This document shows, one piece after another, positions 1,990 through 58,536 of a stretch of DNA of 64,000 nt (positions are counted from its first letter, which is position 1; each line of letters opens with the position of its first letter). The position numbers and the translations under genes are program-made. This stretch comes from Blasia pusilla (lineage: Eukaryota). Where the stretch lies: NCBI GenBank assembly GCA_050084515.1, contig CM114271.1:7006001-7070000 (forward strand), in the 5' to 3' direction. Under the pieces are notes generated by a model. The model did no database searches. It was not told where the DNA came from and worked only from the letters and a program-made list of their open reading frames with translations.

Positions 1990-2187
1990 GCGGAGATGCC
2001 CGCTAGACCCGCTATAGAGTGTGCCATGGCTTCTCCTGGGGTAGTGTTGCTGGATAACCGGGGAGAGGTCTTCTAGTTGGTGAGTCTTGGAGGTAGAGCT
2101 TTTAGTTTGCAGTGCGTCTTGTTGGATTCATGAGCAGAGTTGATGTGGAGCGTTGTCCATTCCGGATACAGACATCCTTGGATGGAG
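1990..2187 (+). pseudogene. Older DNMT-Gypsy copy, left part (protease N-terminus), interrupted by the complete element
   Basis: Translates VLLDS...VERCPFRIQTSLDG, homologous to VLLDSGAQ...IEPCPFQIQTSIGG at 6070-6190. The homology resumes at 11940. Confidence 0.8.
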
Positions 2188-2666
2188 TGTCACATCTGAG
2201 TAGCCGATAGGCCGAGATCTATCGTGGATAGGGCGTAGGAGCCAGCGGACTATCTTGAGTGTAACTTTGTCCCACAGTGTCGGATAAGGTTGAGGATAGG
2301 TCCAATGTGTCAGGAACGTCGTTTCTGACGACTTTCATGTTGAGGTCTTTTACAGCCGGGTGACTTGTTGACCAGGTCACGTGCCCCAGGTAACCTGTGC
2401 GCGCAAGTTACCAAGGGAAGGGCTACTCTTAGGGGAAGAGCCTTTTGGCTCTTCCCAACCTATATAAGAGAGGAAGATGGCTTTCCTAAGCCATCTTTCT
2501 CATGTTGGGCCGTTGGAGCACCTCCCTTGTATGTGTGTGAGCTAGGACTAGGGTGCTAGCGTCCGGATTCCTTGATAGCACAGGGTGGACGAGGCTCGAT
2601 ATGCCGATGTAGATTGAGGAGTGGAATTTTAGGCCAAGTGTGCCGTTTTTACTACTCTTTATTTTT
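2188..2666 (+). repeat. Terminal repeat A1 (479 bp)
   Basis: Direct repeat of 11323-11801, about 17 mismatches by eye (~96% identity), mostly transitions. Confidence 0.95.
2459..2468 (+). promoter_or_regulatory. TATA box in repeat A, flanked by two hairpins
   Basis: CCTATATAAG. Upstream GGGAAGAGCC-TTTT-GGCTCTTCCC and downstream AAGATGGCTT-TCCT-AAGCCATCTT. Also present in A2. Confidence 0.65.
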
Positions 2667-2680
2667 ACATGAGAAAGATG
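2667..2680 (+). promoter_or_regulatory. Putative self-priming primer-binding site
   Basis: ACATGAGAAAGATG directly after A1 is the exact reverse complement of CATCTTTCTCATGT (2492-2505), ~30 nt downstream of the TATA box. No TGG-type tRNA PBS is present. Confidence 0.7.
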
Positions 2681-3862
2681 TCAGGGGGCTGCTGGGAATT
2701 TGTTGTTTGCAGGTAGGCAAGCGAGTTGCCTTGGTCGGGAGCCCTGGAGACGTGTGTGTGACGTTTTGTGTCATTTTTTCTGTTCGGAAGGCCGTGGGCG
2801 GAAGCGCTGTCCATTTTTCTCAGATTTTGCTGGTGCGGATTGATGGGGGACAGCAGCCGAGTGTAGCGTTTGGTTGGGCGTCGGATGTACGCAAGTGAGG
2901 GTGTCGAGAGAGAAGGAAAGGGCAGGTTTGGGTCTTGCAGCCGCCGGGTGGCTGTCAAGTAAAGGCGGCTAGGTTAGGTCGCGAAGGCTAGAGTTAGGAC
3001 GCGGGCAGCAGACAGACGCAGACAGGCGCGGACGGGCAAACAGCGAACAGGCGAGGGGCGCGGACGGCGGATGGCAGACGGGCGTGGACAACAGACGGAG
3101 AGAACGGACGGGCGAGGGCCGCATAGGACCGCGGCCCCCCCCCCTTCTTTCCCGCACTTGGGGAGGGCCGCATAGGGCCGCGGGCCCTCCCCTCCCTTCG
3201 TTGTTCTCCCGCAGGTTGGGAGCACGGGCCAAGGGGGCGCGGATGGTGGACGGCAGACGGGCGTGGACGATAGACGGAGAGAACGGACGGCGAGACCGTG
3301 GGCCCCCCCCCATTTTTTCAGAGTGAGATTTTGCACGGAGATTATTTTTGGAAGACTGAACTGACTGTCGGCGAGGTGGGTGAGTTACATCGACAGTTTG
3401 CGGGGGAGAGTTGAAGATGGAGTATCTGTTGACGGGAGGATCGACATGCTGGTCGAGGAGAGTGTTGTGTTGCGGAGATTGTCATATCATGTGGAGGAGT
3501 GCATATTGACGGTGCAGCAGGTTGGAGGGCGTGATCAGTTAACCCATTTGAGTCCCTTTTCTTGCACTTGTCGTGTGTGATTGAGAGTGTTGGGTATCGG
3601 GTAGTAGCTGGTGCTAGATGGGTGCAGTGATGGTGACGAGTGTAGATTCTTTTCATGTGTAGCATGTTGGTGGATATACGGCGGTTTCCGAGTAGGGGTT
3701 GCGTGTATGACCCGAGAGAGTGTCGCTAGGTTAGGTGAGTCATTTGGGAGGCTCATGGTGAGCCCGAGTGTTGAGCATGGGTGAGGCCGGGTATGTCATC
3801 ACGGGATTGACGTTAGCACATGTGAGCTAGTGAGGCGTGTGGGAGATTCTCGATGAGTCTGA

Positions 3863-5413
3863 GTGCTTGAGTGGGTGAGACAAGGTTTGTCATCACGGCG
3901 TTCTTCGAGGGTTCGGAAGAACGGGGTAGCGCGAGCAGTGACACGGAGTGAAGTGAGATACCGAAGGGTTACCAGTGAGGAGCTCCCTCGACATCCATCC
4001 GTGACTGGATCGTCGTCATTGGACACTGGGTCTGGTGACGAGATCATCGACAAAGACAGTAGTACTTGGCAAGAGATGGACGACATGGGCCATTGGGGCA
4101 TGCGTCGTTTCTCGGGTGCAGTGGGCACCATCGACTTAGATAATTTCATCCAGGAGTTCGACATATGGTGCGACTTCCAAGAGATACGGACCCCGACACG
4201 GTTCAACCCTTTCATGGCATGGAAGGGGTTGTTCCAGCACTTGGAGGGTCCTCTGATGGATGACTACATGGAGTTTCGATCACTATATTCAGTAGAGATC
4301 GATGCCTGGAGGATGTATTGGGCTCCAGGGTATGTGTCCACTAGTGGTCGCGAGGCATATGATGGGATTGTGAGAGGAGAGAGACCCACACCATTAGCCC
4401 GGAGACTAGATGGAGAGGAGGGCAGTGAGACAGGCGATGTGGCAAAGACCTTTGGTGGTAGAGGGCCACCCAGCTTCATCCCCACAATGGAGTTCTTCCG
4501 ACATTTGGGGAAGAGCTACCAGGGCGTACGCACCGACAAGCTGAAGAGTCTACAGGATTTTCAGCGACGATCGGGTGAGAGTCTGAGAGAGGCCTTCACA
4601 CGCATGAGGAGGCTGATCATTGCTACGTTTGGAGGATCGAGGCGCGTCGGTCCAGTCAAGATTGGTCTGGGGTTACGGGACCGAGAACTACGGAGGAGAG
4701 TCGAGATGCGTGTCTTTGATTCACACAAATGGAAGCCCACATTGAAGGTGGTCTTTGAGTTGTCTGAGCGTATTGAGCTCAACATGAGTGAGGAGCAGGT
4801 AGTGACCGCTGGATTTTCTCGATAATCGACGGGTCCACGAGCGGCGGTGACCCCACAGGTGCCACAGCGAGCACCAGTACCACGAGAGCGGGCTAGTGTG
4901 CCTAGAGAGTAGGGCGGGTACCGTGAGCCTATGAGGCAACGACCCCCACCTACATATGTTGCCCAACAGGGACCGATGTGGTCTTGTTGGACGTGTGGAG
5001 GGGCCCATAGGCAGAGAGATTGCCCACAGCATGGGAGAGGACCACCAGCGCCTCCGATTGCTCAGGAGCCACAATGGATGGCCCCACCACATCACCAGTA
5101 TGACCATTGCCACAGATATGGTCACACTAGGGATAGATGTTTTGACCTTCGCCGAGGGGCACGTCCAGAGGTAGGCCGAGGGCCTAGGGGCGGTCGTCCT
5201 GGAGGAGGTCAGGGAGTTCTTCCTGGACGTGGTGGTAGAGGACCACCACCAGCCAGAGGAGATGGAGCAAGAGCACCAGAGCCGGCGCTTCTCTCACGCA
5301 TCGATCAGTTGGAGCAGAGGATTGCTGCCATGACGATGATGCAGCTTAGGGAAGACATGGAGCTGCGAGCAGCTAGTGTGACTCCAATCGCTACCTCTTA
5401 CCCGACGCGGTGA
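3863..5413 (+). pseudogene. gag: Gag (capsid-like region plus two zinc knuckles), disrupted
   Basis: ORF 3863-4825 (...FSGAVGTIDLDNFIQEF...FQRRSGESLREAFTRM) and ORF 4931-5413 with CWTCGGAHRQRDC and (Y)DHCHRYGHTRDRC knuckles plus RGG-rich segments. Confidence 0.8.
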
Positions 5414-6029
5414 GGATCTCTCCAGTATGGGATTCATGTGTAGTGCAGCCCAGGTTGAGGCAGCTGAAGTGGTGACTCGGGGTGCTGCGAGAGGCACCGA
5501 GCCATCGAGAGGTGGAGTTGAGACCCGACCCACGAGAGGGGACCGATGGGGCTGCAGCCAGGGTTCCCTGATCGTTCACATTGTCGGAGGCACTACACAC
5601 ACCATCGATGGTGCCTCGGCGACCAGCGGTGCCTCGATTCGAGGCACCTACATCGCGTCACAAGGAGTTGGAGTGACAACTCCTATGCCGGCTCAGTGGA
5701 GTCGAGTGTCGACTATAGTGTTGAGGTGGCCACTAGAGTGAGTCAGACTCCGCTATTTTCCGCCTTAGAGTTGGCGACGTGGGGAGTTGGACCAGGTGAG
5801 GTGTTCGGTTGGCCGCCACGTTGTGTGGCGTGGAGAGATGGCGCTTCTTGTTTAGAGGTAGTTAAGGAGGTGGTGGACTTGCCCTCGAGCGGTGCTTGGG
5901 ACGTTCCCCATAGAGTCGTGGCATGCGGCGGCAGCGAAGTTGGTAGATATGCCAGCTCGACCGGCCATAGAGCGAGCAGTGGTGACACCTGGAGTAGTGT
6001 TATTGGATAACTGAGCTGGAGTATTTCGC

Positions 6030-6420
6030 TTGGTTAGTCCAAAAAGGACGGTATACCACCCGCACCGCGTCCTACTTGATTCGGGAGCGCAACCCTTGAT
6101 GTTAGGGAAGGCGGCGTGTTTAGCGTTGGGGTTACGGAAGGCCAAAATTGAGCCTTGTCCCTTCCAGATACAGACCTCGATTGGGGGCGTATCACCCACT
6201 CAGTATATGACTCGACAGGAGATTGTTGTCAAAGTCCAGCCAGAGCATGCGACGGATAGTGCTATGGTGCGCACACGTGCGATTACGACACCAGCTGAGT
6301 CGTACGATGTGTTGGTGGGGAGTACAATGTTATATCCCCTAGGATTCATCCTTGACTTCTGGGAGGAGACCGTTGCTTATCGGCCAGGATGGCGGTCAGG
6401 TGACGGTCGGATGAGTCAAT
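6030..6420 (+). CDS. Retrotransposon aspartic protease domain
   Basis: VLLDSGAQ active site and SYDVLVG motif. Confidence 0.85.
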
Positions 6421-6794
6421 TACCCGTGCAGTTTGCAGGACGAGGTGGTCGATCACGAGGCGAGTCTGTGACCACGTTGGCGGCTTTCACAGGTAGTGTT
6501 AGCTGGCCAGGAGAGTTGTTGGAGGGGAACGCACATGCAGAGGATGTCCCAGTAGCGGATAGTCCCACGGAGAGACAGGCCATGGCGGGTGTCTCTTCCC
6601 ATGTTAGCGATACCTCTTCACCATTATGGGGTACGACTCGAGAGCTACAGAGGAGTGCCGACGACCTCGTGAGGCAGGCGTGGAGTCATGTTTTTATCCC
6701 TGAGCAGCAAGAGTCACGTGGCGATCGGGCTCTTGGAGTGGAGACGATGACCCCACTAGATACCACACCTGTTGTGTGGCAGTGCCCAGAGAAG

Positions 6795-7735
6795 GGTGTT
6801 AGATCTCTTCGGAGGGATTAGCACCGGATTGGCTGCCATATTGCGTGGCATACGGGTGCATCAGTACCTTTATGTGGAGAGAGATGAGACCGCGCGGCGA
6901 GTATCATTACGTCACGTGGCGAGATTGGTCCAGAGGTATCCTGAGTTGTTGTTGGTATCTGCAGTACGGGGATACCAGCATACGCTATCCGCCGACATCT
7001 CTTTGGTGGGGGTGCAGGATCTGGATAGAGTTGGCACCATTCATTTGGTGATTGTTGGATGGCCATGTCAGGGTCATTCATCAGCTGGCCGAGGATTTGG
7101 ATTGCAGGATCCGAGGTCAGGGGTATTTTGGGAGATGCTGCGAGTATTACGACACTTGCAGGAGAGTCAGATATGTTCTCCAGCATACATTTTGGAGAAC
7201 GTGCCATTGTTGGGAGACACTCGTGCACGTGTGATGATGAGTGTACATCAGGTGAGGTCCTGGTTGGGACCTACTATGTTGTTAGATGCAGCGAGAGTTG
7301 GGTCACGTGCCCATCGTCCACAACTGTGGTGGACGAACTTGATACCATCAGAGGTACTGAGTCAAGCCTACAGTGGAGTCCAGAGAGCACCACATCTCAC
7401 AGTGGATGTTATTTTGGGCTCAGGGCATCGATCTCAAGTGATGACACGCGATGATAGACCACCGTTGGCCACGGCCAATAGGGTGGGGGAGTTAAGGGTA
7501 GCCTTACCTACGTTGGTGAGCTTCCCAGCATCCCATGCCTTTCGTCAGGGAGGGCCAAGCATGATTTGGGATGAGGTGACCGGAGTATTGGAGGAGCCTA
7601 CAGTAGATGAGCGTGAGCGCGCCATGGGGTTCACTACCGGTACTACGGCGGTGCCAGGGATGACTGAAGCATCACGGAGATAGGTGTTGGGGCAGGGGAT
7701 GGACCTCAACTGTCTCACATGGATAGTCAGCCTAG
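6795..7735 (+). pseudogene. C5 DNA cytosine methyltransferase domain within Pol (frameshifted at its start; one nonsense change before motif X)
   Basis: Motif I VLDLFGGI, motif II YVERD, motif IV GWPCQG (7057-7074, catalytic Cys), motif VI ILENV, motif VIII HRPQLWWTN, motif IX ERERAMGF, motif X-like VLGQGMD after TAG 7681. Confidence 0.92.
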
Positions 7736-8099
7736 GTACGGCTTAGCAGAGACGGATGCGAGTGTCATCCATGCCGTCACGTCCACGAGTTGGACCACTG
7801 CCTACAGGGTATGTACAGGCATTGGCTGGGGGCGAGATGATAAGAGATGGACTTCCTGGGACGTCGTTCGAGCAGAGAGTGCGAAGGCGGCTAGAGTAGC
7901 ACATGTTCATTTTTCGGATGTGGAGCATGGTGTAGGCGATCAGAGTGGATTGGGTGTTGCGGAGGTGGCTAGGATTGCTACATAGCAACCAAAGCCAGAG
8001 GTTGCGTCCTCTCCGAGTGAGGTCACGATGGAGACTTGGGAGCCTGTGATAGGTCTCAAGTTGATAGGAGGAGAGCGATGGCGAGTTCATAGGTTTCTA

Positions 8100-9470
8100 A
8101 GAGGGCATGTTTGTTGTTTTGCCTTCAGTATGAGAGACTTGGGTACGCCAAAGGGTCCCGGGATACGGATTGAGTTGGCTAGTGATACGCCAATCTTTCG
8201 TCGACCCTACAGGTATTCTGATATGGAGCGAGCCTTGATTTGAGCGAGAGTCGGGACTTGTTGGAGGCAGGACTTGTGGAGTTATCACATGGGGAGTATG
8301 CATTTACCACAGTCATGCCGGCGAAGAAGGATATGTATGGCAATTGGACGGATAGGCGGATGTGTGGAGATTACCGTCCTATCAACCGACAGACGAGGTC
8401 AGATTGATATGCCATGCCTACTCCTAAGGAGATCTTTGATGCGGTAGGGCATACAAAGATCTTCAGTACTTTAGATCTCCGTGGTGACTATCATCAGCTT
8501 CCTATCAGGTTGGAGGACAGGGAGAAGACAACATTCTGGGGGATAGATCGGTCCGGGAGAGATTGCTTGTATCAGTGGCGGTTCTTACCATTTGGATTGA
8601 AGAACGCGCCTACGGAGTTTCAGAGAGTGATGGATAGGATTCAGGCTGGCTTGGATTTTGTACGATGTTACATAGATGATATTCTTATCTTCAGTTCCAC
8701 GGTTGAGGAGCATGAGCGACACTTGGAGGAGGTGTTTCGGCGATTGCGATTACATGGGGAAGTTACATCCAGGCAAGTGCAGATTCTTTCAGGAGCAGAT
8801 TGAGTACTTGGGACACACCATATACCCGAGTGGGTTAGGCGTTCAGAAAACGAAGGTAAAGGCTATTGCGCAGATTCCACGCCCTACAGATGTGAGTCGA
8901 GTCCGAGCATTTCTTGGACTGGCGAACTTCTATCGACGGTATGTCAAGGGTTTTAGTGCGATCGCAAAGTCTTTGACCTTGTTGACGAGACTTGATCAGG
9001 TGTGGTTGTGGGGAGATGATCAGGAGCGAGCATTTCAGGAGCTCAAGGACAAGTTGACGTCCTCACCCATTTTACAGAGACCGGTTAGGGGTCGCCCATT
9101 CCAGTTACATACGGATTGGAGCATGTTGGGTCTAGGAGCAGTGCTTACTCAGAGGGATGACGAGGAGAGGGAGTTCATCGTGGCTTACGCGAGCCAATCG
9201 AACAACATTGCAAAGGCAAAGTACAACTCCTATGAGGGAGAGTGCTTGGCTGCAGTGTGGGCCGTGGCATATTTTAGGTGCTATTTGTTCGGCAACCCTT
9301 TCACACTTATCACTGATCATCAGCCGTTGAGGTGGTTGATGGAGTCCGACAAGCTTACGGGAAAGCTTGCCAGGTGGGCTCTATTACTACAAGAGTATGA
9401 GTTTGAGGTGGTTCATAGGCCAGGTTGGCTGAACCAGGATGCGGATGGGTTGAGTCGTAACCCATGTCCG
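8100..9470 (+). pseudogene. pol: Reverse transcriptase and RNase H (Ty3/Gypsy type)
   Basis: RMCGDYR, FSTLDLR..YHQ, LPFGLKNAP, YIDD (8669-8680). RNase H TDWS...EGEC...TDH...ADGLSR. Confidence 0.95.
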
Positions 9471-9723
9471 AGTCAGAGAGACGACACAGGAGCTCGATGG
9501 CACGGAGAGAGTGATGAGGAGATGGTGCCCGGTTGGCATGCATCCGCCTATCTTTGTTGGTTGACTATGGCAGGTTAGCCACAGGTGATGACTCCAGTGG
9601 TGGGATTGGATGATGAGTCTTTGGATCCGGAGGTTAGTGAGGAGGCGACAGGTGGTCGTGATATCCATGACAACGTGGAGGTTGTGGAGTTATTGCGCAT
9701 TGGCGTCATTGTGAGTACAGTGA

Positions 9724-11106
9724 GTGCTAGGGAGCGGGATCGGATCCTTCCTTCAGAGAGCCAAGAGGTTCAGGTGGGAGGGGACACACATTTTACGGGT
9801 ATGGGAAGATGGTAGGATACGAGTGGTACCTCATCCTTCCCAGCAAGCACGTGTAGTGCGACATGCCCATGAGGAGTTGGGACATTTTGGAGTAAAGCGT
9901 ACGTTCAACTTACTCCAGGTTCAGTATAGGTGGCGCGGCATGCATACTGGGGTACAGCAGTTTGTGGCCAGATGTATGGTATGTGACAGAGTGCGAGCAT
10001 CCTTCAATGCTCCCACTCCACAGTTACATCCTTTGCTGATTATGGGTTTAGGTTATCGGTGGAGTTTAGACTTTGCGGGACCTTTGCCATTGACAGGGCG
10101 TCATCATAGGTACGTGTTGGTCATGGTGGAGCATTTCTCCAAGTGGATAGAGTTGGTGGCACTACCAGACAAGGCGAGCAAGGGAACAGCTTATGCGTTT
10201 CTAGATCGTGTGCTTAGTCACTTTGGTGCACCGGCGGAGGTGTTGACTGACCAGGGTACCGAGTTCAGGGGAGAGTTTCAGGCCTTGTGTGATCAGGCGC
10301 TGATAGATCACCGCACCACATCCAGGGATCATCTTGAGGCGGACGGGTTGGCGGAGAGAGTGGTACAGACGGTGAAGAGAGGATTGCGCAAGTATGGCTT
10401 GCAGCGGGGACAGTTGAGGGAGTGGGACCTACAGTTGCCATGGTTGGCTATGGGTTATCGCTTTAGTTGGCATGCATCCTTGACATCATTTTCACCGTAC
10501 TTTTTGCTCTTTGGGAGAGAGCCAGATTTACCTGCAGCGATTCGAGGTGACATGGCGGAGGTGTTAGATCTTGATGATCCAGATGTGTGGGTGCAAGCAT
10601 GTTCTCAGAGGGCAGAAGTTTTTCGTAGAGTTATGGCTATGGCCTTTGAGAACTTAGCTATTGCTCAGCATACAGATACATTGAGGTACGCGACCATTCA
10701 TGGAGGAGGTTATTGTCCAGGGATTAGGAGGTTTCATCTTGGAGATTACGTGTATTTACAGCAGGCGGCACCCACGACGCTAGATGTCACTGCAGGGCGC
10801 ACGATCCTACGTGTGCGCGAGGTATTACCGACCGGAGTCCTCATGTTGGAGGGACGGGATGGTATGGTTTGGAAGGATCATGTGCGCAATTGTGCGCCAT
10901 GTCATCTTCCAAACGTAGATGGGATGGTGGATCCAAGCTTGGCAGTGGTACTTGCAGGCTTGAGGTGTATGTTGTGCGGATCTGCGAGGGGTGCAGCCAC
11001 CATGTTGGTATGTGATGGTTGTTCTCGAGGGTGGCATATGTCATGTCTGACCCCCCCTCTTGATGTGGTTCCCACGGGACGATGGATGTGTCCGAGATGT
11101 GTATAG
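9724..11106 (+). CDS. DDE integrase with C-terminal PHD finger
   Basis: HHCC (HEELGHFG...CMVC); D (SLDF), D (TDQG), E (LAER). C-terminal C4HC3 CMLC...VCDGC...WHMSC...WMCPRC. Confidence 0.93.
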   Translation: MLGSGIGSFLQRAKRFRWEGTHILRVWEDGRIRVVPHPSQQARVVRHAHEELGHFGVKRTFNLLQVQYRWRGMHTGVQQFVARCMVCDRVRASFNAPTPQLHPLLIMGLGYRWSLDFAGPLPLTGRHHRYVLVMVEHFSKWIELVALPDKASKGTAYAFLDRVLSHFGAPAEVLTDQGTEFRGEFQALCDQALIDHRTTSRDHLEADGLAERVVQTVKRGLRKYGLQRGQLREWDLQLPWLAMGYRFSWHASLTSFSPYFLLFGREPDLPAAIRGDMAEVLDLDDPDVWVQACSQRAEVFRRVMAMAFENLAIAQHTDTLRYATIHGGGYCPGIRRFHLGDYVYLQQAAPTTLDVTAGRTILRVREVLPTGVLMLEGRDGMVWKDHVRNCAPCHLPNVDGMVDPSLAVVLAGLRCMLCGSARGAATMLVCDGCSRGWHMSCLTPPLDVVPTGRWMCPRCV

Positions 11107-11173
11107 GGTAGTAGGTCATGTCAGAGCGATGTGATATTTTCTATCTGGAGTTAGGGGGATCCAACTGCGAGCT

Positions 11174-11182
11174 AGGGGGGCG
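11174..11182 (+). promoter_or_regulatory. Polypurine tract
   Basis: AGGGGGGCG immediately 5' of B1. An equivalent TAGGGG tract precedes B1 in all four copies. Confidence 0.8.
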
Positions 11183-11320
11183 GTTGTGTGATCTCCATGT
11201 ATATGTATGAGTTGATTTTTGTACATGTGTGGATCGATCCGTGTGTGGGGAAGATCAGTGTTGTGTGGTGTAGATGTGACGAGCGATGTATGTTGTGTAG
11301 CGATATGTATGTGCACGACA
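11183..11320 (+). repeat. Terminal repeat B1 (138 bp)
   Basis: Direct repeat of 11802-11939; ends GTGCACGACA. Confidence 0.93.
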
Positions 11321-11322
11321 GC

Positions 11323-11801
11323 TGTCACATCTGAGTAGCCGATAGGCCGAGATCTGTCGTGGATAGGGCGTAGGAGCCAACGGACTATCTTGAGTGTTAC
11401 TTTGTCCCACAGTGTCGGATGAGGTTGAGGATAGGTCCATTGTGTCAGGAACGTTGTTTCTAACGACTTTCATGTTGAGGTCTTTTACAACCGGGTGACT
11501 TGTTGACCAGGTCACCTGCCCCTGGTAACATGTGCGCGCAGGTTACCAAGGGAAGGGCTACTCTTAGGGGAAGAGCCTTTTGGCTCTTCCCAACCTATAT
11601 AAGAGAGGAAGATGGCTTTCCTAAGCCATCTTTCTCATGTTGGGCCGTTGGAGCACCTCCCTTGTATGTGTGTGAACTAGGACTAGGGTGCTAGCATCCG
11701 GATTCCTTGATAGCACAGGGTGGACGAGGCTCGATATGCCGATGTAGATTGAGGAGTGGAGTTTTAGGCCGGGTGTGCCGTTTTTACTACTCTTTATTTT
11801 T
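11323..11801 (+). repeat. Terminal repeat A2
   Basis: Copy of A1, joined to B1 by a 2-nt spacer forming the palindrome GACAGCTGTC. Confidence 0.95.
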
Positions 11802-11939
11802 GTTGTGTGATTTCCATGTTTATGTATGAGTTGATTTTTGTACATGTGTGGATTGACCCGTGTGTGGGGAAGATCGGTGTTGTGTGGTGTAGATGTGACA
11901 AGCGATGTATGTTTTGTAGCGATATGTATGCGCATGACA
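11802..11939 (+). repeat. Terminal repeat B2
   Basis: Copy of B1; ends CGCATGACA, followed by TSD GGAG. Confidence 0.93.
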
Positions 11940-13417
11940 GGAGCGAGTACCACACAGTATATCACCTGACAAGAGGTTATGGTGAGGATTTTCCCGGGAC
12001 ATCCTACACATGATCCGTGGTGTGAGCCAAGGCGATAGTAATTGATGCACGGTCCTACGACATCTTGGTTGGAGGAGTAGAGTTATACCCGATGGGGTTT
12101 TTCTTAGATTACTGGGAAGAGTGAGCATCCTATAGACCAGGATGGCAGTCATGTGATGGGCGCCTTAGCTCATTACCCATTTGATTCACAAGTGCAGTGA
12201 TCGAGCGACGGCCAAGAGAGATGGCGACCTTCGCAACATTTAGCAGTGCCATCACTTGGCCTAGTGATTTGATTGAGGGACATGTCCATGCAGAGGATAC
12301 TCCCATTCCTAAAATTTCTATGGACATGAGTGCATTGGTAGTCGCATCAGTCCGTGGAGGAGAGGTTCCTCTTTGGAGCTTGAATGAGGAGCTTCGACGC
12401 TTAGCCATTGACCATGTGCAGACCGCGTGGAGCGAGACATTTCCACCAGAGTGTGATGGGTCAGAGGAACCCCACGTAGGCAGGAGTGTTGCTATGACCC
12501 CTTTGGATGCTACTCGGATTGTGTGGTACGTCCCAGAGGAGGGTATTTGGGTGTTGGATCTCTTTGGAGGGATTAGCACTCGGTTAGCTGTTGTTTTGCA
12601 CGCTGGAGTGCGCGTGCAGCAATACTTGTATGTGGAGATTGATGATGTTGTGAGGCGCGCTTCACTTTACCATGTGGTGCAGTTACGCCTGCGTTTTCCC
12701 AACTTGTTGTCTACGTCCGCCATTCAGGGTTCCCTACAGAGGGATATTTCATTGTTGGGATGCAGGACATGGAGCGCGTAGGGACCATAAACTTGGTCAT
12801 TGCTGGTTGGCCATATGAGGGCCAGTCGAGTGTTGGACGGGGTAATTGATTAGCTACCTCTCGTTCCATGTTATTTTGGGAGATGATGCGGATCTTGCGA
12901 CACTTCCAAGAGCATCAGTCTCGTCTTGCAACATACATCCTAGAGAATGTACCAATTTTGGGCGATTCGAGGTCCTGTGTGGTGATGATTGCATATCAGA
13001 TGCGCGTATGGATCGGCCTGAAAATTTTGTTGGATGCGGCGAGTATGGGTTCACAAGCACATTGCCCGCGTCTTTGATGGACTAACTTGGTACCACACGA
13101 GGTATTGCGAAGGTCATAGACGAGAGTGGAGCGCCCCTCCAATTTGTTGGTGGATTCTATATTGGATCCAGGCCGTCGATCATAGGCAGTGAGGCACGAT
13201 GATCGTCCATCGTTGAGTATGGTCAACAAGATTGGCATGCCACGTGTAGCCTTTCCCACATGGGTGAGTTTTCCCGATTCCTATGCATTCAAGGAGGTCG
13301 GAGCCGGCTTGCTTTGGGATGAACTGGTACAAAGGTTGGTGGAGCCCAACGCCGATGAGCAAGAGGGAGCAATGGGATTCCCCACATGAGTGACGGAAGT
13401 ACCATCACTATCAGAGG
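11940..13417 (+). pseudogene. Older DNMT-Gypsy copy, right part (protease C-terminus and decayed DNMT)
   Basis: GASTTQYIT continues the protease; VLDLFGGIST, GWPYEGQS (catalytic C>Y), YILENV, EQEGAMGF. Confidence 0.85.
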
Positions 13418-15030
13418 TGTCGCGAACCCCATAACCAAACAACACCAAATAGGCGCTAAGCAAAACATCAGAACTCAGGTGGACTCACGCTGCGATGATC
13501 GCGCTTTGGAGAGGCTTTTGGAAAGGTCTCTTGGAAAAGTCCAAGAGACAAAACGCGGAATAGAGTCATGCGTTTCATGCATATGTGGTCGCAACCAGGA
13601 AACCTAGACCAAACGCGAGCCAAGACTTGAGATGAGTTGAGTCTTGGAAGGCTGATTTCCAAAGAGGTGAGAACAAGTTTTGGAACCCGACTAGCGTTTG
13701 GGGAATTTGACTGTGTTTTGGATCATAACATTTAGGGACGTTAGCATTTGGGACAAGTAAGGGCTCATTGGAAAGCTTATCTTGAAACTCTTCCAACACA
13801 TAAATGATCTTAGCAAACGCATGAGTACAGATTAAGGTATTCGCCGAAAAAAACTGTGAGAGCAATTGGGTTGAGGGCCAATTGGAGAGGCGCGGGTGTC
13901 TTTCCCTAAATGTAGGGAACCCCGGAGATCCCCATAAGTACTAGTATGGGAGGAGTCTCTCCCAGATGTCTTGGAACACAAATCCCCGTTTTGAGCACCA
14001 AACGGTGTCTCAGAGGCATGGGATGGAACGTGAGTTTGGCGTTGGAACTCAAAACCCAAACCTCATCCAAGGGAGTGGACTTTGTACGCCACGCTTGGAT
14101 TTCGACCCGAGATTCACTTTTTGCGAGTCTTGGTTAGGGACTCATTGGATGTCCATCGAATAGTTGGAACCGCCAAGCGCGAAACGCCGTTTGAGGTTCT
14201 TGAACTGACCAAAAAGTCGGTCCCAAGTCTTTCGAGACTTGCCCGTGTTGTAAATCGCGAAACTAGGAAGGTTGAGCTTGATGAGAGACCGAGACGAGAA
14301 CTTGGAAAGCTAGCTTGCTGATTGATCCAAGACCCAACTAACCAGAGTGCGTGTTTGGATGCAAATCAGCGTTGAGAGCGTGACCTACTGAACGCACGCT
14401 TCCGCAACAACAAGATTAACGTTCAAGGAGAGTAGGCGCACAACACGTGGTATCACAGCAAATTCTTGGTGAGTGAGAACTTGGGATCATAGAAGATCAA
14501 GACATTTGAGAAGAATGCAAGGTAGTTGGAAGACCACAACGCTCGAGGAGGAACGCAAGAGACGGGGAGGAGATCTAAGAAAGCGAGGACTCGCAAATGG
14601 CGACCAAGGGCGAAGAACCAAGGAAGCCGCGAGTCAAAGCAAAAAAGCCGAGAGAAAAATCAATGACAAACCGTGAACCACAGGTGGAGATTGCAACTTC
14701 CGAAGTGCCGAGTCCCAGACATGAGGATATTCCAAACGCAAATCTTTCTGTGGGGCCTTCGGCTCCAAACTCAAACGATCCGGCCTATTATATCCAAATG
14801 ATGGATTTGATGAAGGTGATGGCGGACCAGATGGCTGAGCACAGCAAGGTGATCATAGAACTCAAGTCGAATGGAGCCTCTAGTTCCGGCAAGAAGCTTT
14901 GTTAGACAAATTTTCCAACGCCATTCACAGGAATGGGGCGTTCTCGAAAAGTGAGCGAATTTCTAACGGAACTCGAACTTTATTTCAAAGCACGAAAGGC
15001 ACATGAGCAAGACAAGGTGACTGTAGCGAT
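13418..15030 (+). mobile_element. Truncated conventional LTR retrotransposon: 5' LTR (13418-14445), Met-tRNA PBS (14448-14459), gag start
   Basis: TGT...ACA, then TGGTATCACAGC (one mismatch to the iMet PBS). Gag-like FTG...VSEFLTELELYFKAR...DKV at ~14920-15025. Confidence 0.75.
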
Positions 15031-18000
15031 AAAGCTAACCGATTAAAATTCAGAATGTATGATTCAATTTTAAAATTGCCTACCGAAACAAGACTAGATT
15101 TATATAGTTATTCTTCATAGAACGTATTTTAAAAACGATATGCATGAGACCCTAATCAGCCAGCCAAACAACAACACTCGAGAGCAAGTGCACTCTCGAA
15201 CCATCCGAGCAAGGCGCATTGCCAAGTGAGAGCAAACATTTCCGAGCAAGACGTAACCTGCAATGCTGCACAGCCAAGTGAGAGCGGAGCCCGTGAGGCT
15301 TAGAGCGAGGTTGAACCATCCAAGTAGGCCGCACTACCGAAGACCAAAGACTTAACCTACAGTGTAGCACAGCCGAGTGAGAGCGGAGCCCGTGAGGCTT
15401 AGAGCGAGGTCGTGAGATCGAGGTTGTGAGGGGCAAGTGGGCGCAAGTGAGGAAGTGAGCATTGCAGAGCAGCCGAACGGGGTAGGGAGGAAGGGAGAGG
15501 GTAGAGAGGGGCGGATGCGTCCCGTTAGAATCGGGGTAGGGGGGAAGGGGGTGGGGGCAGCCGCGTCTCAGAGGCTGGCCGTTGAATTTAAGATCAAACG
15601 GTCTAGATCATCTGGACCGTTAGAATCGCGGTAGGGGGGAAGGGGGTGAGGGGCGGCCGCGTCTCAAACGCAGGTCGTCCGATTGATAATCTAACGGTCC
15701 ACGAAAAGTGGACCGTTAGATGTGGGCCTTACGATTAGCAGAGACGGCGTCGACCACGAGTAGGGTTGGTAGTCAATGTTAGGTTCGGGATAGGTTCAGT
15801 ATTTATATTATTTTTAAAAAATACCATTTTTTAATATGAGTTTTTTAAATAAGATTTTTTTTCCAATTTTCTCTCTCGGATTTCCTTTTTCCTTTTTTTC
15901 CTCTTTTTTCATATTTTTTCAAATTTTCTTAAACATCCCAACTAAAATAGCTTTATATTTTTTTCTTCTTCTTTGTTTTTAAGAAAAAATATTAGTTTCT
16001 CTTTCTCTTTCTCTTAAAATTTTCTTTTAAACTCTTCCTCTAAAATTGGTTTATGTCTAGCTTGCAACTTTTTCATTCTCTTTCTCTCTTTTTTTCGCAC
16101 TTTATGTTTTTTCCTTATCTCATCTAATTTTTTCCTCATTTTTCCCATTTAATTTTCATCATTTTCTTTCTCTACTATTTTACATTTTTTTCAATTTTTA
16201 ATAAGTAGTTTTGTGGTGTGTAATGTAGATGGCGAGTGGAGGTGGATTATTATTGAACATGAAGAGACGGCTGCTAGGAGTTATCACAAATATACCGATT
16301 CTACAACAAAATTCACGGAGACAAATCGAAGAATTGTAGAACACCTCTCCGATGTAAGCACCTTTCTTTGGAAGAACAATGGAAGCAACGTATTTCCATT
16401 TCCACGATATGCCTTACATCCCATGTTTTGTATGTGTATACTAAAATGATGCAATCTTGGAATTTTTGCACAGACTTCCTATTCCATCAAATCCGACACA
16501 TTTGCGTGACTTCTGAAAATTGATGCGTGTGAACGCACCAAAAAAAAGGCGTGCACGTCGCAAGGAACTATTAGTTCAAAAGGCACATGTTGAAGATGAA
16601 TTCCTTCCCGAAACATCTCCAACGTAAGTTCGCAAAATTGACAATCATTTAGCATGTCCACATTTCCACCCTTCATAATCTTCACTTTTAATTTAAGTCC
16701 GTGCATTGCTCTTAATATTTATGTATTGTTTCAGACTTCCCATTCCATTGAATCCTATATATGGATGTACGTGATTTTCGAAAGGTTCTACGCGGCGAAG
16801 CCCAAAAATGAAAACGTGCTATTCGTGTTGACAGAATGGAAGCCTTGAAAGAAAAAAAAGATGTTATTATCGAGAGTATAGAAAAAGAAGGAAAGCGCTT
16901 CATGGTCAAGTTGAGATTGCGATGGTAGTTCAAAGTATTCCAACTACTCCAAATGAAGAGCTTATGGCTATTGGTAGTCAACCCATGAGGTACATATCTA
17001 ACTTTTTACATCCTCGTTGAAAATCTTTGATTGTTCATTTTTTATTTGTATGTATTATCTAATATATTGATATTTTCTCAGGCCTTTTAATGAGGATGGA
17101 GGAGTGGTAGGAGAAAATCAAGAAGTTCATCTTCCATCCACAGATCTCATACATGCATCACCAAAACGGGAGTTACGTGATAGTGCACTCCATGAAGTTA
17201 TCGAGAATATATCTACGACAAGACCAACTACTTATGTGATACCAGAAGTTAAGTTACCTATCACTCTTCCGATTTTGTTTCAACATGAAGTTGTTGAGAT
17301 TTCTTCGACTCTTTCCCATTCCGAGGATGAAGCAAGGTCAAGAGTAGATCCTTTGTCTTCTACCATTAATGGAGTTGTGTTATCTCCTGAAAGTGCAACT
17401 ATACCAAATGCTTCTAGGATTACTCCGTTGTCTGTTGTTGATGGGGTTGTAAGATTAAATACATTATTGAATCTTGCAAGAAGATCAAATTTCCAAGAAA
17501 ATGATATTAGAAATTTGAGATTACATAGGAGTTTGAATCGTGTCAGCGGTTGTCATATATCGGGTTATATGATAGAGATATGCCCATCATGTCATGCTTT
17601 ACATTGGAAATGTGAAAGGATGAAAGGCTTAAAGATTAGTGACTCACCATATGGCATGTGTTGTGGCCATGAGAGAATACATTTACCCCTCTTGAAATCG
17701 TCTCCTCAATTCCTGAAATCCTTGATTTCAGGTGTTGGTCTTAGAAGTCTTCATTTTCGTACACATGCTAGAGCTTACAATTGTGCGTTTCAACTTGCAT
17801 CTATTGGAGTGCACGTAAAAGAACAAATAGGTGGCACTTGACACTTTAGGGTCCAAGGCGGGATTTATCATTCTATTGGATCCTTACATCCTGATATGGG
17901 GGGTCATCCCCAATTTGCTCAACTCTACATCCATGATACCGAAAATGAATTGGAGAATCTTGAAAGAGTTATGTCTAGATCTTCTGATCTTAATGTAGAT

Positions 18001-21000: not shown

Positions 21001-22560
21001 ATTTACAGAAATTACGGTTCGGTGGAAAACTTATGGTATTTGGTGGTGATTTTCGTCAAGTGTTGTCTGTTTTTCGTCATGGGGATCGGCCGCAAATCAT
21101 CCAAGCCACCATAAGGAGATCATCTCTTTGGTCTAATGTAAGGGTCATGAAGTTGAAAACAAACATGAGAGTTCAAAGGTTGGATGGTCATTTGCGTGAT
21201 GAACAACAAGCTTTTGTTGATTGGTTATTGAAAGTGGGAGAGGGTCGTGTACTTTTACACCCTCACTTGGGAGAAGACTTTATACGATTACCATCTGAAA
21301 TTGTTACTAATAGTAACAAAATATGTGATCTTATTGATTTGATCTATGGCAATTTTCTTAGCTGATTCCATGACATTGATTTCTTTGACTCTAAGGAATA
21401 ATGATTTTGACAACATAAATACAGACGTTATGTCTTGGTTCCCCGGAGAGGTAATCCTTTAGACTTATCTCATTTGTATCTCTATCAATATGGTTTTTGG
21501 AAGTTTGGATACTCATATTTCTTTTTCTCACTAATTCATTACATATTGTGTACAAGAGCATATTTATCTCAACGTGGACTCTATTCCAAATGAGGGAATG
21601 AGTCATATCTACCCAACTGAATTCTTGAACACATGCTTGCCTTCAAGACTTCCTCCGCATCGTTTGTGTTTGAAGATTGGTGCACCAATCATGCTCTTAC
21701 GAAACACGAATGGGTCACGTGGACAAGCAAATGAGACAAGATTTGTGATTCGTAGATTTATAAGACATTGCATCGACGCTGAAATTATCACTGGGAAGAA
21801 TGTTGGAGATCGCATTTTTATTCCACGTATTCCATTGATTGCATCAGATTTCCAAGTATTCCATCGATTGCATCAGATTTCCACATATTCCATCGATTGC
21901 ATCAATTCTGGTTTGCCATTTGATTTACGTAGGTTTCAATTCCCTGTTAGGCCGGCTTTTGCTATGACTATTAATAAGTCATAAGGTCAAACTTTACAAA
22001 AGGTTGGCATTTACTTGCCTACTCCTGTATTTTCTCATGGTCAATCGTACGTAATATTATCTAGAGTAGGAAAGAGAAATTCCATCCACATTACCATTGG
22101 AAGAGATGAACATTCAAATAACACGAAATGTGATATATATAAAAATATTAAAATAAAATAAATTTAATAAAATATATCTTCACTCTCTGTTACCTTATTT
22201 CATCCGACACCGTTGGACATTTTCATATTTTAAAATGAATATATTCAATAACAGAATTAGAAATTTTTTTAAACGTACAATCTAAAAAATGAGAAAACGT
22301 GGGAAATCTAGAACGCTCGATCTAACTGGTTAGTGTTAGTGAGCGTAGACCAGTTTTCTAACGGGTAGTGGTGGGCATCAATCTTTGATGGATAAGTATG
22401 CTTTTTTTAATTAAGTACTGTCGGGGTGGTGGGGCCCGCGTCTGTGCTTGCCTTGAAGTAGGCCAATGAGGACTGAGGCTAACGCAGCAGCAATTTCCGT
22501 GAAGCGGACAGGCGAAACGGCGCGCATTTTCGCTTTATTTATATATATATATATATATAT
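15030..22560 (+). mobile_element. Decayed autonomous-type Helitron (boundaries uncertain)
   Basis: RepHel pseudogene. Upstream GC-rich direct repeats (15268-15311 / 15367-15410) and hairpins (e.g. ATCTAACGGTCCAC-GAAAA-GTGGACCGTTAGAT) and a T-rich tract. Confidence 0.6.
17104..22070 (+). pseudogene. Helitron Rep/PIF1 helicase (RepHel) with introns, stops and frameshifts
   Basis: CxxC...CC zinc motif, PQFAQLYIHD. Rep motifs FTMTCNPKW, VEFQKTSLPHVH, KYLYKYVYKG. Helicase GPSGTGKT, WDEAPM, GGDFRQ, PAFAMTINKS*GQTL, FSHGQ. AT-rich GT-AG introns, e.g. ~18915-19013, ~19265-19363, ~19697-19805. Confidence 0.93.
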
Positions 22561-58510: not shown

Positions 58511-58536
58511 AGTTATTTGACTTACTATCACTACTT

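Follow-up and report, generated by a model that had tools for sequence, protein, structure and literature searches.

Retrotransposons that encode the silencing enzyme of their own hosts are rare. The closest described system comes from the charophyte alga Klebsormidium nitens, in which KnitGypsy-Dnmt3, according to the main text and one figure legend of de Mendoza et al. 2018 (PMC5890265), is a Gypsy element whose Pol ORF contains a Dnmt3 that is not rearranged, with Ka/Ks below 0.2 and repeats described (legend of Fig. 4c) as 'the same as that of a DIRS retrotransposon'. The same text reports fewer such copies in K. nitens than in Symbiodinium, a dinoflagellate in which SymbioDIRS-DNMT3 and SymbioLINE-DNMT likewise bear a C5 DNA methyltransferase (DNMT) in the coding region of a retroelement; these, however, belong to the DIRS (tyrosine recombinase) and LINE orders and are called unrelated to the Gypsy case. 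The EpiLTRs of Cymbomonas and Euglena, as described in part of a preprint (bioRxiv 10.64898/2026.05.21.726589), are LTR elements combining a DNMT with a chromatin-reader domain, but their DNMT is sister to DNMT4 and lies in Cymbomonas at the 3' end of pol, an adenine methyltransferase (DAM) is present and the reader is a chromodomain, whereas the family described below has a DNMT3-type enzyme between protease (PR) and reverse transcriptase (RT), no DAM and a PHD finger as reader. The first-pass annotation of this DNA had correctly named the precedents from dinoflagellates and Klebsormidium. Two later papers citing de Mendoza et al. 2018 speak, in the passages concerned, of 'streptophytes'; the one streptophyte precedent that we found in print comes from an alga. 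The papers covered by our literature search include none that reports Gypsy elements with a DNMT from bryophytes or any further group of land plants, and supplementary DNMT trees (e.g. PMC12344493) may hold bryophyte sequences.

The window (the whole stretch of 64,000 nucleotides analysed here) contains at 2188-11939 a Ty3/Gypsy-like element, e1, in which a DNMT sits between protease and RT. The family to which e1 belongs shares with KnitGypsy-Dnmt3, as presented in PMC5890265, the Gypsy domain set, a DNMT3 that lies within the polyprotein and is not rearranged, an intronless coding region, Ka/Ks below 0.2 and DIRS-like repeats. The hosts differ, a charophyte alga in the one case and, to judge from the named relatives, land plants in the other, and set against the copy number given in that text the present family is large, with 525 clusters at 50% identity reaching E<=1e-30. 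In a comparison confined to architecture and the figure legend, we take the family to be the land-plant branch of the Klebsormidium-type Gypsy-DNMT3 elements. A candidate leaky stop after the DNMT, a PHD finger on the integrase, target site duplications (TSDs) and a palindromic inner junction are described here; the term 'PHD' is absent from the main text of PMC5890265 (its figures and supplements being outside the scope of this statement), and PHD fingers in retrotransposons are already known in general (PMC6673714, in the part that concerns them).

The C5 cytosine methyltransferase domain of e1 occupies 6796-7740 (plus strand, frame 1), so that the span of 6795-7735 proposed in the first-pass annotation was accurate. 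The stop-free ORF 6760-7683 (plus strand, frame 1, 307 residues) matches PF00145 with an E-value of 5.2e-9 and 36.4 bits against a curated cut-off of 22 bits, the match spanning profile positions 49-120 of 324 only; the stop-free copies L038 (51.1 bits, profile positions 2-120) and L043 (46.2 bits) also exceed the cut-off. Most of the motifs named earlier can be read in frame 1 of e1: motif I as VLDLFGGISTGL, motif IV as GWPCQG with the catalytic Cys, motif VI as ENVP with the catalytic Glu, motif VIII as GSRAHRPQLWWTNL and motif IX as ERERAMGF. An X-like motif had been noticed as well, and VLGQGMDLNCLTW is indeed found in the same frame before a second TAG (7744-7746), however it lies behind a premature in-frame TAG (7681-7683) that separates motifs IX and X. 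When e1 is aligned with 15 natural relatives, rather than replaced by a consensus, no variation is seen in W-P-x-Q or in the N of ENV, and conservation of the catalytic Cys and Glu reaches at least 90%, bearing out the expectation that the catalytic residues are retained, and motifs I, IV, VI, VIII, IX and X are all kept across members that are only 35-68% identical.

Among PDB sequences, the family profile matched DNMT3A (7e-19) and DNMT3B (2e-16), followed by DRM (4e-11, partial), M.HhaI (6e-6) and DNMT2 (1e-4 to 2.5e-4), and no chain named DNMT1 or chromomethylase occurred among the 59 PDB rows with E up to 10. DNMT3A, the best solved relative of the e1 domain, is matched in three colinear stretches (motif I; motifs IV-VIII; motifs IX-X), which indicates that the domain is not rearranged and retains the canonical order, unlike DRM. 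An AlphaFold model of the domain (pLDDT 72.7) retrieved with Foldseek only DNMT3A/B/C among the top matches listed, at E-values of about 1e-13 and TM-scores of 0.6-0.68. By sequence profile and predicted fold, the e1 domain is a predicted DNMT3-type C5 DNA methyltransferase. It resembles the catalytic domain of host DNMT3A/B in best sequence and fold match, in motif order and in its short target-recognition region, however the identity is about 20-22%, the element has PCQ where the aligned DNMT3A has PCN, and the domain lies within a Gag-PR precursor and lacks PWWP, ADD or any other N-terminal reader. Host DNMT3 proteins carry N-terminally PWWP/ADD in animals and a DUF in land plants (PMC12344493, in the part treating domain architecture). 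For the e1 domain, Pfam detects none of the N-terminal reader domains of host-type DNMT3, its matches being confined to protease on the upstream side and RT on the downstream side, which points to a captured catalytic domain and not to a host-type gene.

The remaining parts of e1 all lie on the plus strand. Gag (3863-5413, frame 2, with one stop at 4826-4828 and a CX2CX4HX4C knuckle) is recognised from ORFs and from residues 10-412 of the Marchantia protein P0122, which align to 4097-5332. The aspartic protease region (6015-6795, frame 3, ORF 6015-6821), containing LLDSGAQ, is assigned by alignment to a database protein; its homologue in L038 gives a weak Asp_protease_2 match (E 2e-4) that is below the cut-off. 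Downstream of the DNMT, RT and RNase H are spread over frames 2 and 3 by frameshifting (8255-9746; RVT_1, E 1.3e-20, with RT at 8408-8803; RT_RNaseH, E 1.7e-33; alignment to the database protein P0142), and the integrase (9754-10965) comprises an H2C2 zinc domain (Integrase_H2C2, E 2.1e-14) and an rve core (E 5.1e-15). To its C-terminus is joined a PHD finger (10966-11103; PF00628, E 1.1e-10), for which the closest solved structures are CHD4, PHF12, DPF2/3, KDM5A/B and PHF21A. The position of the methyltransferase between the protease ORF and RT, as first proposed, is confirmed by these assignments, and the family order is Gag(CCHC) - aspartic protease - DNMT - conserved UAG/UAA - RT - RNase H - DDE integrase - PHD finger.

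The RT-RNase H-integrase order, the DDE integrase, the TG..CA ends and the short target duplication are those of Ty3/Gypsy elements. Although the repeat layout alone resembles DIRS-like elements, a DIRS/Ngaro identity is ruled out by the DDE integrase and the 4-bp TSDs; no recombinase family was matched in Pfam that would indicate a tyrosine recombinase, rve and Integrase_H2C2 being present instead. As in chromoviruses, a histone-reader module is fused to the C-terminus of the integrase, presumably for targeting, however the reader of chromoviruses is a chromodomain, and the PHD finger in its place rules out a chromovirus identity for e1.

Between the DNMT and RT of e1 lies a stop, TAG CAA CCA (TAG at 7983-7985, plus strand), which is conserved in the family and which we propose to be leaky. 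A homologous stop was found in 18 of 19 instances (TAG in 11, TAA in 7), followed by CAA CCC, CAG TTA, CAA TCA or CAA CCA, that is CAR-YYN; the presence of TAA in 7 copies may reflect decay. The Type I readthrough motif is UAG-CARYYA, and in tobamoviruses such a leaky UAG followed by CAR-YY borders an abundant upstream product and a readthrough product containing the polymerase (PMC5382211, in the part describing this motif). The present stop is alike in sequence context, but it occurs in a retrotransposon between DNMT and RT, is UAA in 7 of the 18 cases, and in its commonest context, CAA CCC, departs from CARYYA at the last base, which is C in most copies. L038 has a 1369-residue ORF with the aspartyl-protease match and the DNMT, a single TAG and then, in the same frame, a 1047-residue RT-RH-IN-PHD ORF, and the database ORF1 proteins end at the family stop. 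In some database proteins (e.g. P0142, 2358 residues) DNMT and RT share one ORF, hence the stop is not universal; a pattern for the RT N-terminus located no stop position in the 13 long proteins tried. From the conserved UAG/UAA behind the DNMT, the primary product would be Gag-PR-DNMT, with RT-RH-IN-PHD requiring readthrough. The domain had at first been placed in the Pol path, and this holds as far as its location between protease and RT is concerned; being upstream of the conserved stop, however, it would be a part of the Gag-PR product and not of the RT-containing readthrough part.

The terminal repeats of e1 are split, as the first-pass annotation had noticed along with the PHD finger. 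The element is flanked by the TSD GGAG (2184-2187 on the plus strand, with the same four bases at 11940-11943), and in RNA reads position 2183 is followed directly by 11946, the element being absent. At its 5' end is repeat B (2188-2666), which starts with TGTCA, contains a TATATAAG box and is 96.5% identical over 479 nt to a 3' copy at 11323-11801. The 3' copy is preceded by repeat A (11183-11321), joined to B via the palindrome GACAGCTGTC, and followed by repeat A' (11802-11939), the right end of e1, which ends in TGACA; A is 93.5% identical to 11802-11940. Just 5' of repeat A lies a G-rich polypurine-like run, AGGGGGGCGG (11174-11183), seen also in e3, L008 and L041. The layout is thus B...A-B-A' with TGTCA..TGACA ends and 4-bp TSDs. 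The TSD is GGAG for e1; L041, likewise full-length and independent of e1, is bordered by AAGG. In both full-length copies (2 of 2) two complete identical LTRs are absent, the 5' end consisting of B only while A flanks the 3' B on both sides, and the sequences following the 5' B, where a tRNA primer-binding site would be expected, differ between e1 and L041. A standard LTR model, with a complete LTR at either end and a deletion in the 5' LTR of e1, is ruled out by the same layout in L041. A-B-A' was also found at the 3' ends of e3, e5, L008, L029 and L062/L064, and of the 15 loci with enough 3' flank, five have an A/A' pair no more than 182 nt beyond the PHD, four have one further off and six have none.

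Exactly three DNMT copies were detected in the window by tblastn, the other two being e3 (52186-53106, 78% amino acid identity) and e2 (12551-12760 and 12751-13425, 54-59%). The domain is present in all three window copies in which this region is represented, so the earlier claim of three copies at the same position stands, but the catalytic residues have been lost in two of them. The DNMT of e3 (52222-53106) has nine in-frame stops, with PCQ changed to AC* and ENV to *NV, and that of e2 (12551-13425) keeps ENV but reads PYE for PCQ and contains stops and one frameshift; e1 alone has both the catalytic Cys and ENV. With two in-frame stops near motif X and frameshifts elsewhere in e1, no Cys in e2, and nine stops and neither PCQ nor ENV in e3, all three copies are, judging from their reading frames, dead and predicted to be unable to make the enzyme. 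On the plus strand, the fairly young though dead e1 sits within the older, likewise dead e2, into which it inserted. The left part of e2 (1948-2183) belongs to its protease region, residues 578-642 of P0122 aligning at 1948-2139 and RNA reads bridging 2183 and 11946; the right part of e2 (11946-13425; P0122 from residue 705 onwards aligning from 12029) contains protease and the decayed DNMT. The third copy, e3 (51510-57351, plus strand), is 5'-truncated, runs PR-DNMT-RT-RH-IN-PHD and then A-B-A', and reads Q at the family stop position. The window is generally TE-rich; ORFs of at least 110 residues between 13.5 and 47.3 kb showed Helitron and PIF1 domains only and no host gene.

Beyond the window, a relative is encoded by 224 of 288 metagenome candidates, and relatives extend down to 30-40% identity. 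Those with species names come from the liverworts and mosses Marchantia, Calypogeia, Riccia and Sphagnum, supporting the land-plant host that had been suggested; in Marchantia polymorpha at least 14 annotated proteins of 949-1333 residues match the DNMT profile. According to a quick tree with SH-aLRT support, the organism from which the window comes is distinct from Marchantia, Sphagnum and Calypogeia. Between the stop-free copies L036, L038 and L043, dN/dS is 0.117, 0.097 and 0.120, not near 1, as would have counted against the earlier interpretation, and in sliding windows it is about 0.07 in the DNMT core, 0.06-0.10 in the protease, 0.3-0.4 in the linkers and 0.01-0.09 in RT-IN. Decayed copies raise the values, and with a median of 0.55 over all 303 usable pairs and 0.35 for the pair e1-e3, the signal of selection rests on the three closely grouped stop-free copies and on the deep conservation of the motifs. 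Comparisons of e1 with metagenome copies were left out of dN/dS as synonymous sites are saturated (dS >3 or undefined), and 36 of the 41 full-length metagenome DNMT copies contain stops. The DNMT is, by these sequence comparisons, an integral and selected module of a large Ty3/Gypsy-like family in liverworts and mosses; that it is a family trait and no chance capture, as originally argued, agrees with its fixed position and with the L038 ORF running through protease match and DNMT.

All three RNA-seq runs of the source organism (3/3) place 623-674 reads on 2000-14000, with first mates mostly on the minus strand, an orientation that denotes sense RNA in most stranded libraries. The patch coding for GWPCQG (7043-7077) is contained in 19-26 reads per run, inside a diverged transcript, and the reads are mostly only 90-95% like e1. 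Family members are transcribed, most reads deriving from copies other than e1, and the reads are silent on translation.

Several other explanations for the domain have to be weighed against these data. A chance adjacency of a host DNMT3 gene or pseudogene to retrotransposon genes could draw on the general TE richness of the window and on nothing more; the position of the domain, however, is constant across the three window copies and hundreds of loci, the domain lies inside a TSD-bounded element, and the single L038 ORF, the alignment of P0122 to e1 across Gag, protease and DNMT and the 224 metagenome loci refute such an adjacency, to which we attach practically no probability. It is very improbable that the domain has ceased to methylate DNA and now either methylates RNA, as DNMT2 does, or contributes to the structure of the Gag-PR precursor. 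DNMT2 can be recognised as a distant relative at the E-values given above, but DNMT3A/B are far closer in both sequence and fold, and the SAM-binding, catalytic and DNA-contact motifs, all kept at 35-68% identity, would not be needed by pure structure.

Uptake of DNMTs by retroelements is recurrent, as the literature cited above shows for DIRS and LINE elements of dinoflagellates and for the EpiLTRs found in Cymbomonas and Euglena, and a Gypsy of the bryophyte lineage may have taken a host DNMT3 separately, its likeness to the Klebsormidium elements being convergent; consistent with this, no Klebsormidium name appears among the 50 'longer' matches listed, nor among the 120 'near' ones. The two groups nevertheless have four unusual traits in common (the Gypsy domains, a DNMT3 that is not rearranged and lies in the polyprotein, DIRS-like split repeats and strong purifying selection), and a family with relatives at 30-40% identity and 525 clusters is deep and diverse, which makes an independent capture unlikely. 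A Closterium match, P0170, was set aside (24% query coverage, no PF00145). The enzyme might instead act in trans on host chromatin, blurring or saturating host methylation or tuning the silencing of the family, as its location upstream of the stop would provide large Gag-like amounts, the ORF holds no reader domain of the DNMT's own, and PMC5890265, in the part discussing function, leaves the role open and considers accidental activity on the host genome. Nothing in the sequence indicates a host target, however, and the same source describes the K. nitens methylome as plant-like despite such elements; we see some chance of an action in trans but doubt it.

As a whole, the data are best explained by a DNMT3-type module of a bryophyte Gypsy-like family with a proposed two-product life cycle, a reading that we consider highly probable. 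Genomic RNA would be translated into Gag-PR-DNMT, ending at the UAG, while a small share of ribosomes may pass this codon in its tobamovirus-type context and so extend the product by RT-RH-IN-PHD. The protease would then free the parts, leaving the DNMT in Gag-like and not Pol-like amounts. The likeliest substrate, proposed tentatively, is the element's own new DNA, either cDNA or a fresh insertion, in which case new copies would arrive already marked. The PHD finger of the integrase may steer insertion to chromatin with unmethylated H3K4, the specificity being presumed.

A more far-reaching version, which we regard as quite unlikely, would make the family one ancient streptophyte-wide Gypsy-like lineage, kept vertically from charophyte algae to bryophytes, equipped with epigenetic tools of its own and replicating in an unorthodox way: a DNMT3 produced at Gag stoichiometry by means of the leaky stop and packaged with the cDNA, an H3K4me0-type PHD reader on the integrase that directs insertion, and a circular or concatemeric intermediate. 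The DDE integrase would open this circular or concatemeric DNA at the palindromic CA-GC-TG joint, and such an intermediate would explain the DIRS-like split repeats together with the target duplications. If this were true, new copies would be pre-methylated and placed in silent chromatin.

Elements of the Gypsy-DNMT3 type appear from these comparisons to be abundant and diverse in bryophytes, beyond one alga, and the Marchantia polymorpha proteins together with the family transcripts in the source organism of the window open the role of a transposon-borne DNMT3 to experiment in a tractable land plant. The conserved, putatively leaky stop groups the DNMT with Gag and not with Pol, and the PHD finger and the integrase-compatible split repeats offer concrete mechanistic hypotheses. 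For annotation, the labels 'DNA (cytosine-5)-methyltransferase' and 'site-specific DNA-cytosine methylase' on many bryophyte and moss-associated metagenome proteins denote transposon genes rather than host or bacterial enzymes; a Protein Atlas search with the domain returned generic PF00145 clusters only.

The copy e1, one of the related Ty3/Gypsy-like elements in the window, carries a methyltransferase domain inside a retrotransposon, and this observation is confirmed. Its 307-aa ORF (6760-7683, + strand, frame 1, stop-to-stop) contains motif I as VLDLFGGISTGL, motif IV as GWPCQGHSSAG, motif VI as ILENVP, motif VIII as GSRAHRPQLWWTNL and motif IX as ERERAMGF; motif X, VLGQGMDLNCLTW, follows in frame 1 after the TAG at 7681-7683, the next TAG lying at 7744-7746. 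The span of 6795-7735 proposed in the first-pass annotation is thus borne out by motifs I to X in frame 1, including the part after the TAG, and the C5 methyltransferase assignment by a PF00145 match above the Pfam cut-off of 22 bits (E 5.2e-9, 36.4 bits), which spans profile positions 49-120 of 324. The domain is preceded by Gag, which has a CCHC knuckle (3863-5413), and by an LLDSGAQ-bearing aspartic protease (6015-6821). It is followed by RT (RVT_1, E 1.3e-20) and RNase H (E 1.7e-33), then by integrase (rve, E 5.1e-15) with a PHD finger (E 1.1e-10).

As to the kind of METHYLTRANSFERASE, the best solved relative of the e1 ORF alone was DNMT3A (E 3.2e-5), in an alignment that reaches from motif I as far as VIII. 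When a family profile built from e1 and 15 natural relatives was run against PDB sequences, DNMT3A (E 7e-19) and DNMT3B (2e-16) were followed by DRM (4e-11), M.HhaI (6e-6) and DNMT2 (1e-4). DRM was matched only in part, which its rearranged motif order would predict. Among the 59 rows up to E 10, none of the chains bore the name DNMT1 or chromomethylase. The DNMT3A match falls into three stretches in colinear order (motifs I; IV-VIII; IX-X), and the domain is therefore not rearranged. An AlphaFold2 model on the 16-member alignment (mean pLDDT 72.7, pTM 0.72) was used in Foldseek, where the top matches listed were all DNMT3A, 3B or 3C (E ~1e-13, TM 0.6-0.68 across the whole domain).

Searching the window with the e1 ORF (tblastn, E<=1e-3) recovered three DNMT copies and none beyond these, the others being in e3 (52186-53106, 78% aa identity) and e2 (12551-12760 and 12751-13425, 54-59%). 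That the domain occupies one and the same position in three copies, as first annotated, therefore holds, with catalytic residues still visible in e1 only. At least five related elements have left fragments in the window. Element e1 (2188-11939) starts with TGTCA, ends with TGACA, stands between two copies of GGAG (2184-2187 and 11940-11943) and is inserted in the protease region of the older copy e2, whose halves align with the Marchantia protein P0122 at 1948-2139 (aa 578-642) and from 12029 onwards (aa 705 onwards). The corresponding 2183-to-11946 joint was found in 9, 14 and 4 RNA reads of uninterrupted relatives in three runs. A Gag fragment of the same superfamily (1076-1591, - strand; 39% identity to P0122 aa 339-490) adjoins e2 on the left. 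Element e3 (51510-57351) is truncated at the 5' side and shares 86% DNA identity with e1; e4 (47301-49931) and e5 (59465-62416), both on the - strand, retain RT, RNase H, integrase and PHD only, at ~74% DNA identity, and end short of the DNMT position, upstream of it.

Every copy in the window is dead. Several frame changes and in-frame stops occur in e1; the e3 domain has nine stops and reads SGWAC* and F*NV at the catalytic motifs, and that of e2 reads GWPYEG and retains ENV, with stops and one frameshift. The window copies have a CpG observed/expected of 0.64-0.76, and the metagenome locus L001 has one of 0.28. Differences between e1 and reads (2000-14000) are mostly transitions (per RNA run, G>A at 81-100 places, A>G 72-87, C>T 52-69, T>C 40-48), and both this excess and the CpG values fit methylated, decaying repeats, as expected.

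Relatives beyond the window show the domain to be a family trait under selection. Relatives of the domain were found in 181 proteins of a length class near the query (E<=1e-3), in 50 of a longer class and in 224 of 288 candidate metagenome stretches; clusters at 50% identity number 10585 (E up to 1e-3), 2172 (1e-10) and 525 (1e-30), the weaker tiers surely including other DNMTs. Marchantia polymorpha accounts for 14 of the 50 long matches (e.g. Mp_4g09160, 1278 aa, 68% identity), and other liverworts (M. paleacea, Riccia sorocarpa, Calypogeia fissa) and mosses (Sphagnum troendelagicum, S. tenellum, S. fallax, S. jensenii) are also named; in several named bryophyte proteins the DNMT is fused to Gag (CCHC) or protease. 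In a quick maximum-likelihood tree with arbitrary root, e1 falls within a clade of SH-aLRT 99 that also holds separate and well-supported Marchantia, Sphagnum and Calypogeia groups, and it branches outside these three. No host genes were found in the window; its element is of bryophyte type.

Across the 16-member alignment (35-68% identity to e1), motif IV W-P-x-Q and the N of ENV are invariant, and conservation of the catalytic Cys and Glu is at least 90%. Most genomic copies have decayed, with just 5 of 41 full-length DNMT matches in metagenome loci being stop-free. Among stop-free copies (L036, L038, L043) dN/dS is 0.117, 0.097 and 0.120, well under 1, and these values together with the conserved catalytic residues support the interpretation of the first-pass annotation. 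Between e1 and e3 it is 0.35, and the median over all 303 pairs (dS 0.1-1.2) is 0.55, as expected where decayed copies are mixed in. Along L038 versus L043, dN/dS is ~0.07 for the DNMT core, 0.06-0.10 for protease, 0.01-0.09 from RT to integrase and 0.3-0.4 for linkers.

The nearly intact L038 encodes an aspartyl-protease match and the DNMT (PF00145, 51.1 bits) in a 1369-aa ORF and, after one TAG in the same frame, RT, RNase H, integrase and PHD in a 1047-aa ORF. This TAG (5083-5085) has homologues in L043 (4661-4663) and at the border of the DNMT and RT parts of e1 (7983-7985). A pattern search for the RT N-terminus gave 19 instances (17 loci, e1 and e3), 18 of which have a stop 43-50 codons upstream (11 TAG, 7 TAA); e3 reads Q at that position, and independent database ORFs of 1248-1335 aa terminate there. 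The codons that follow are CAA CCC, CAG TTA, CAA TCA and, in e1, CAA CCA (a CAR-YYN context). In tobamoviruses, UAG-CARYYA is described as the Type I signal for readthrough (PMC5382211), and the conserved stop looks, in its sequence context, like such a leaky stop. The main product would then be Gag-PR-DNMT, with RT-RH-IN-PHD added in a minor readthrough product. Against this scheme, the sixth base after the stop is C in most copies. The TAA variants may reflect decay, and in some database proteins (e.g. P0142, 2358 aa) DNMT and RT share one ORF.

The terminal repeats are split. In e1 the 5' end carries repeat B (2188-2666), and at the 3' end stand A (11183-11321), a second B (11323-11801) and A' (11802-11939), with the G-run AGGGGGGCGG (11174-11183) directly ahead of A. 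The two B copies share 96.5% identity, and A and A' share 93.5%. The A-B-A' arrangement is also found at the 3' ends of e3 and e5 (A/A' at 58536-58664 and 59154-59282 in e5) and in the independent, full-length L041 (B 1676-2017, A-B-A' 10238-10805), which has its own AAGG duplication and TGTCA..TGACA ends. The inner A/B joint is the palindrome GACAGCTGTC, unaltered in e1, L008, L041 and L062 and altered once in L029; A' ends in GACA in every case, adjoining unrelated DNA. Out of 15 loci that extend 1091 nt or more beyond the PHD end, five have the A/A' pair within 68-182 nt of it, four have a pair further off, and six have none. The split layout, which co-occurs with a DDE integrase, 4-bp target duplications and TGTCA..TGACA ends, is not what ordinary LTR reverse transcription yields. 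Our guess is that circular or concatemeric DNA might be opened by the integrase at the CA-GC-TG joint, a cut that would produce recessed CA ends competent for strand transfer. Behind the 5' repeat, the G+C-rich stretch 2802-3202 has a word depth of 63 in DNA run X1 versus thousands in neighbouring bins, and seems peculiar to the e1 copy or hard to assemble.

Three RNA runs with the same species label as the best DNA run (6-12% of each sampled) gave 630, 623 and 674 reads that match 2000-14000 with a likeness of 92% or more. Most first mates map to the minus strand, the orientation expected of sense RNA in most stranded libraries. Most reads are 90-95% like e1 and so come from other copies. Depth is 2.6-3.7 across 6812-7212 and 0.03-1.25 across 7213-7613. 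In each run 19-26 reads match solely the GWPCQG-coding patch (7043-7077) and continue on both sides into diverged sequence, in frame and, by our own reading of unaligned ends against the family alignment, like the family's QDLERVGPV ... TRAGRGEGLH. Such reads show that a divergent family member whose catalytic motif is intact is transcribed. Runs labelled as air metagenome (X7, X10-X12) contain 12-35% of the element's sampled words.

The C-terminal 58 aa of the integrase ORF in e1 resemble solved PHD fingers (E 7e-16 to 6e-10), the best matches being those of CHD4, PHF12, DPF2, DPF3, KDM5A, KDM5B, PHF21A, ATXR5 and AIRE. Several of these are readers of H3 tails with unmethylated K4. By analogy with the chromovirus chromodomain, the finger could target insertion to chromatin with unmethylated H3K4. 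PHD fingers in retrotransposons are already known (PMC6673714).

The closest known system, going by its published description, is KnitGypsy-Dnmt3, the Klebsormidium nitens Gypsy elements with DNMT3 (de Mendoza et al. 2018, PMC5890265), which agree with the window family in architecture, DNMT class, selection and repeat layout; the odd layout, for which a figure legend of that paper likens the algal repeats to those of DIRS retrotransposons, is taken as the strongest hint of kinship. Two later papers citing that work speak of 'streptophytes', one of them calling the elements LTR Copia where the original has Gypsy. No DNMT-bearing Gypsy elements in bryophytes or any land plant are described in the literature searched; supplementary trees beyond it may include bryophyte sequences. 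New here are the large land-plant distribution, including a genetic model, the proposed leaky-stop layout that groups the DNMT with Gag, and details of the split repeats that are compatible with an integrase. As for putative function, our best guess, offered tentatively, is that the enzyme methylates the element's own new DNA; the main rival explanation is that it acts on host chromatin.

Other mobile sequences share the window. A Helitron-type element (17071-22807, + strand) shows Helitron_like_N (E 5e-8), PIF1 helicase (E 6e-38) and Pif1 2B (E 1e-12) domains spread over successive broken ORFs. RT fragments at 37288-38057 (+) and 42139-42723 (-), with 29-43% identity to the e1 RT, are on sequence grounds other retroelements.
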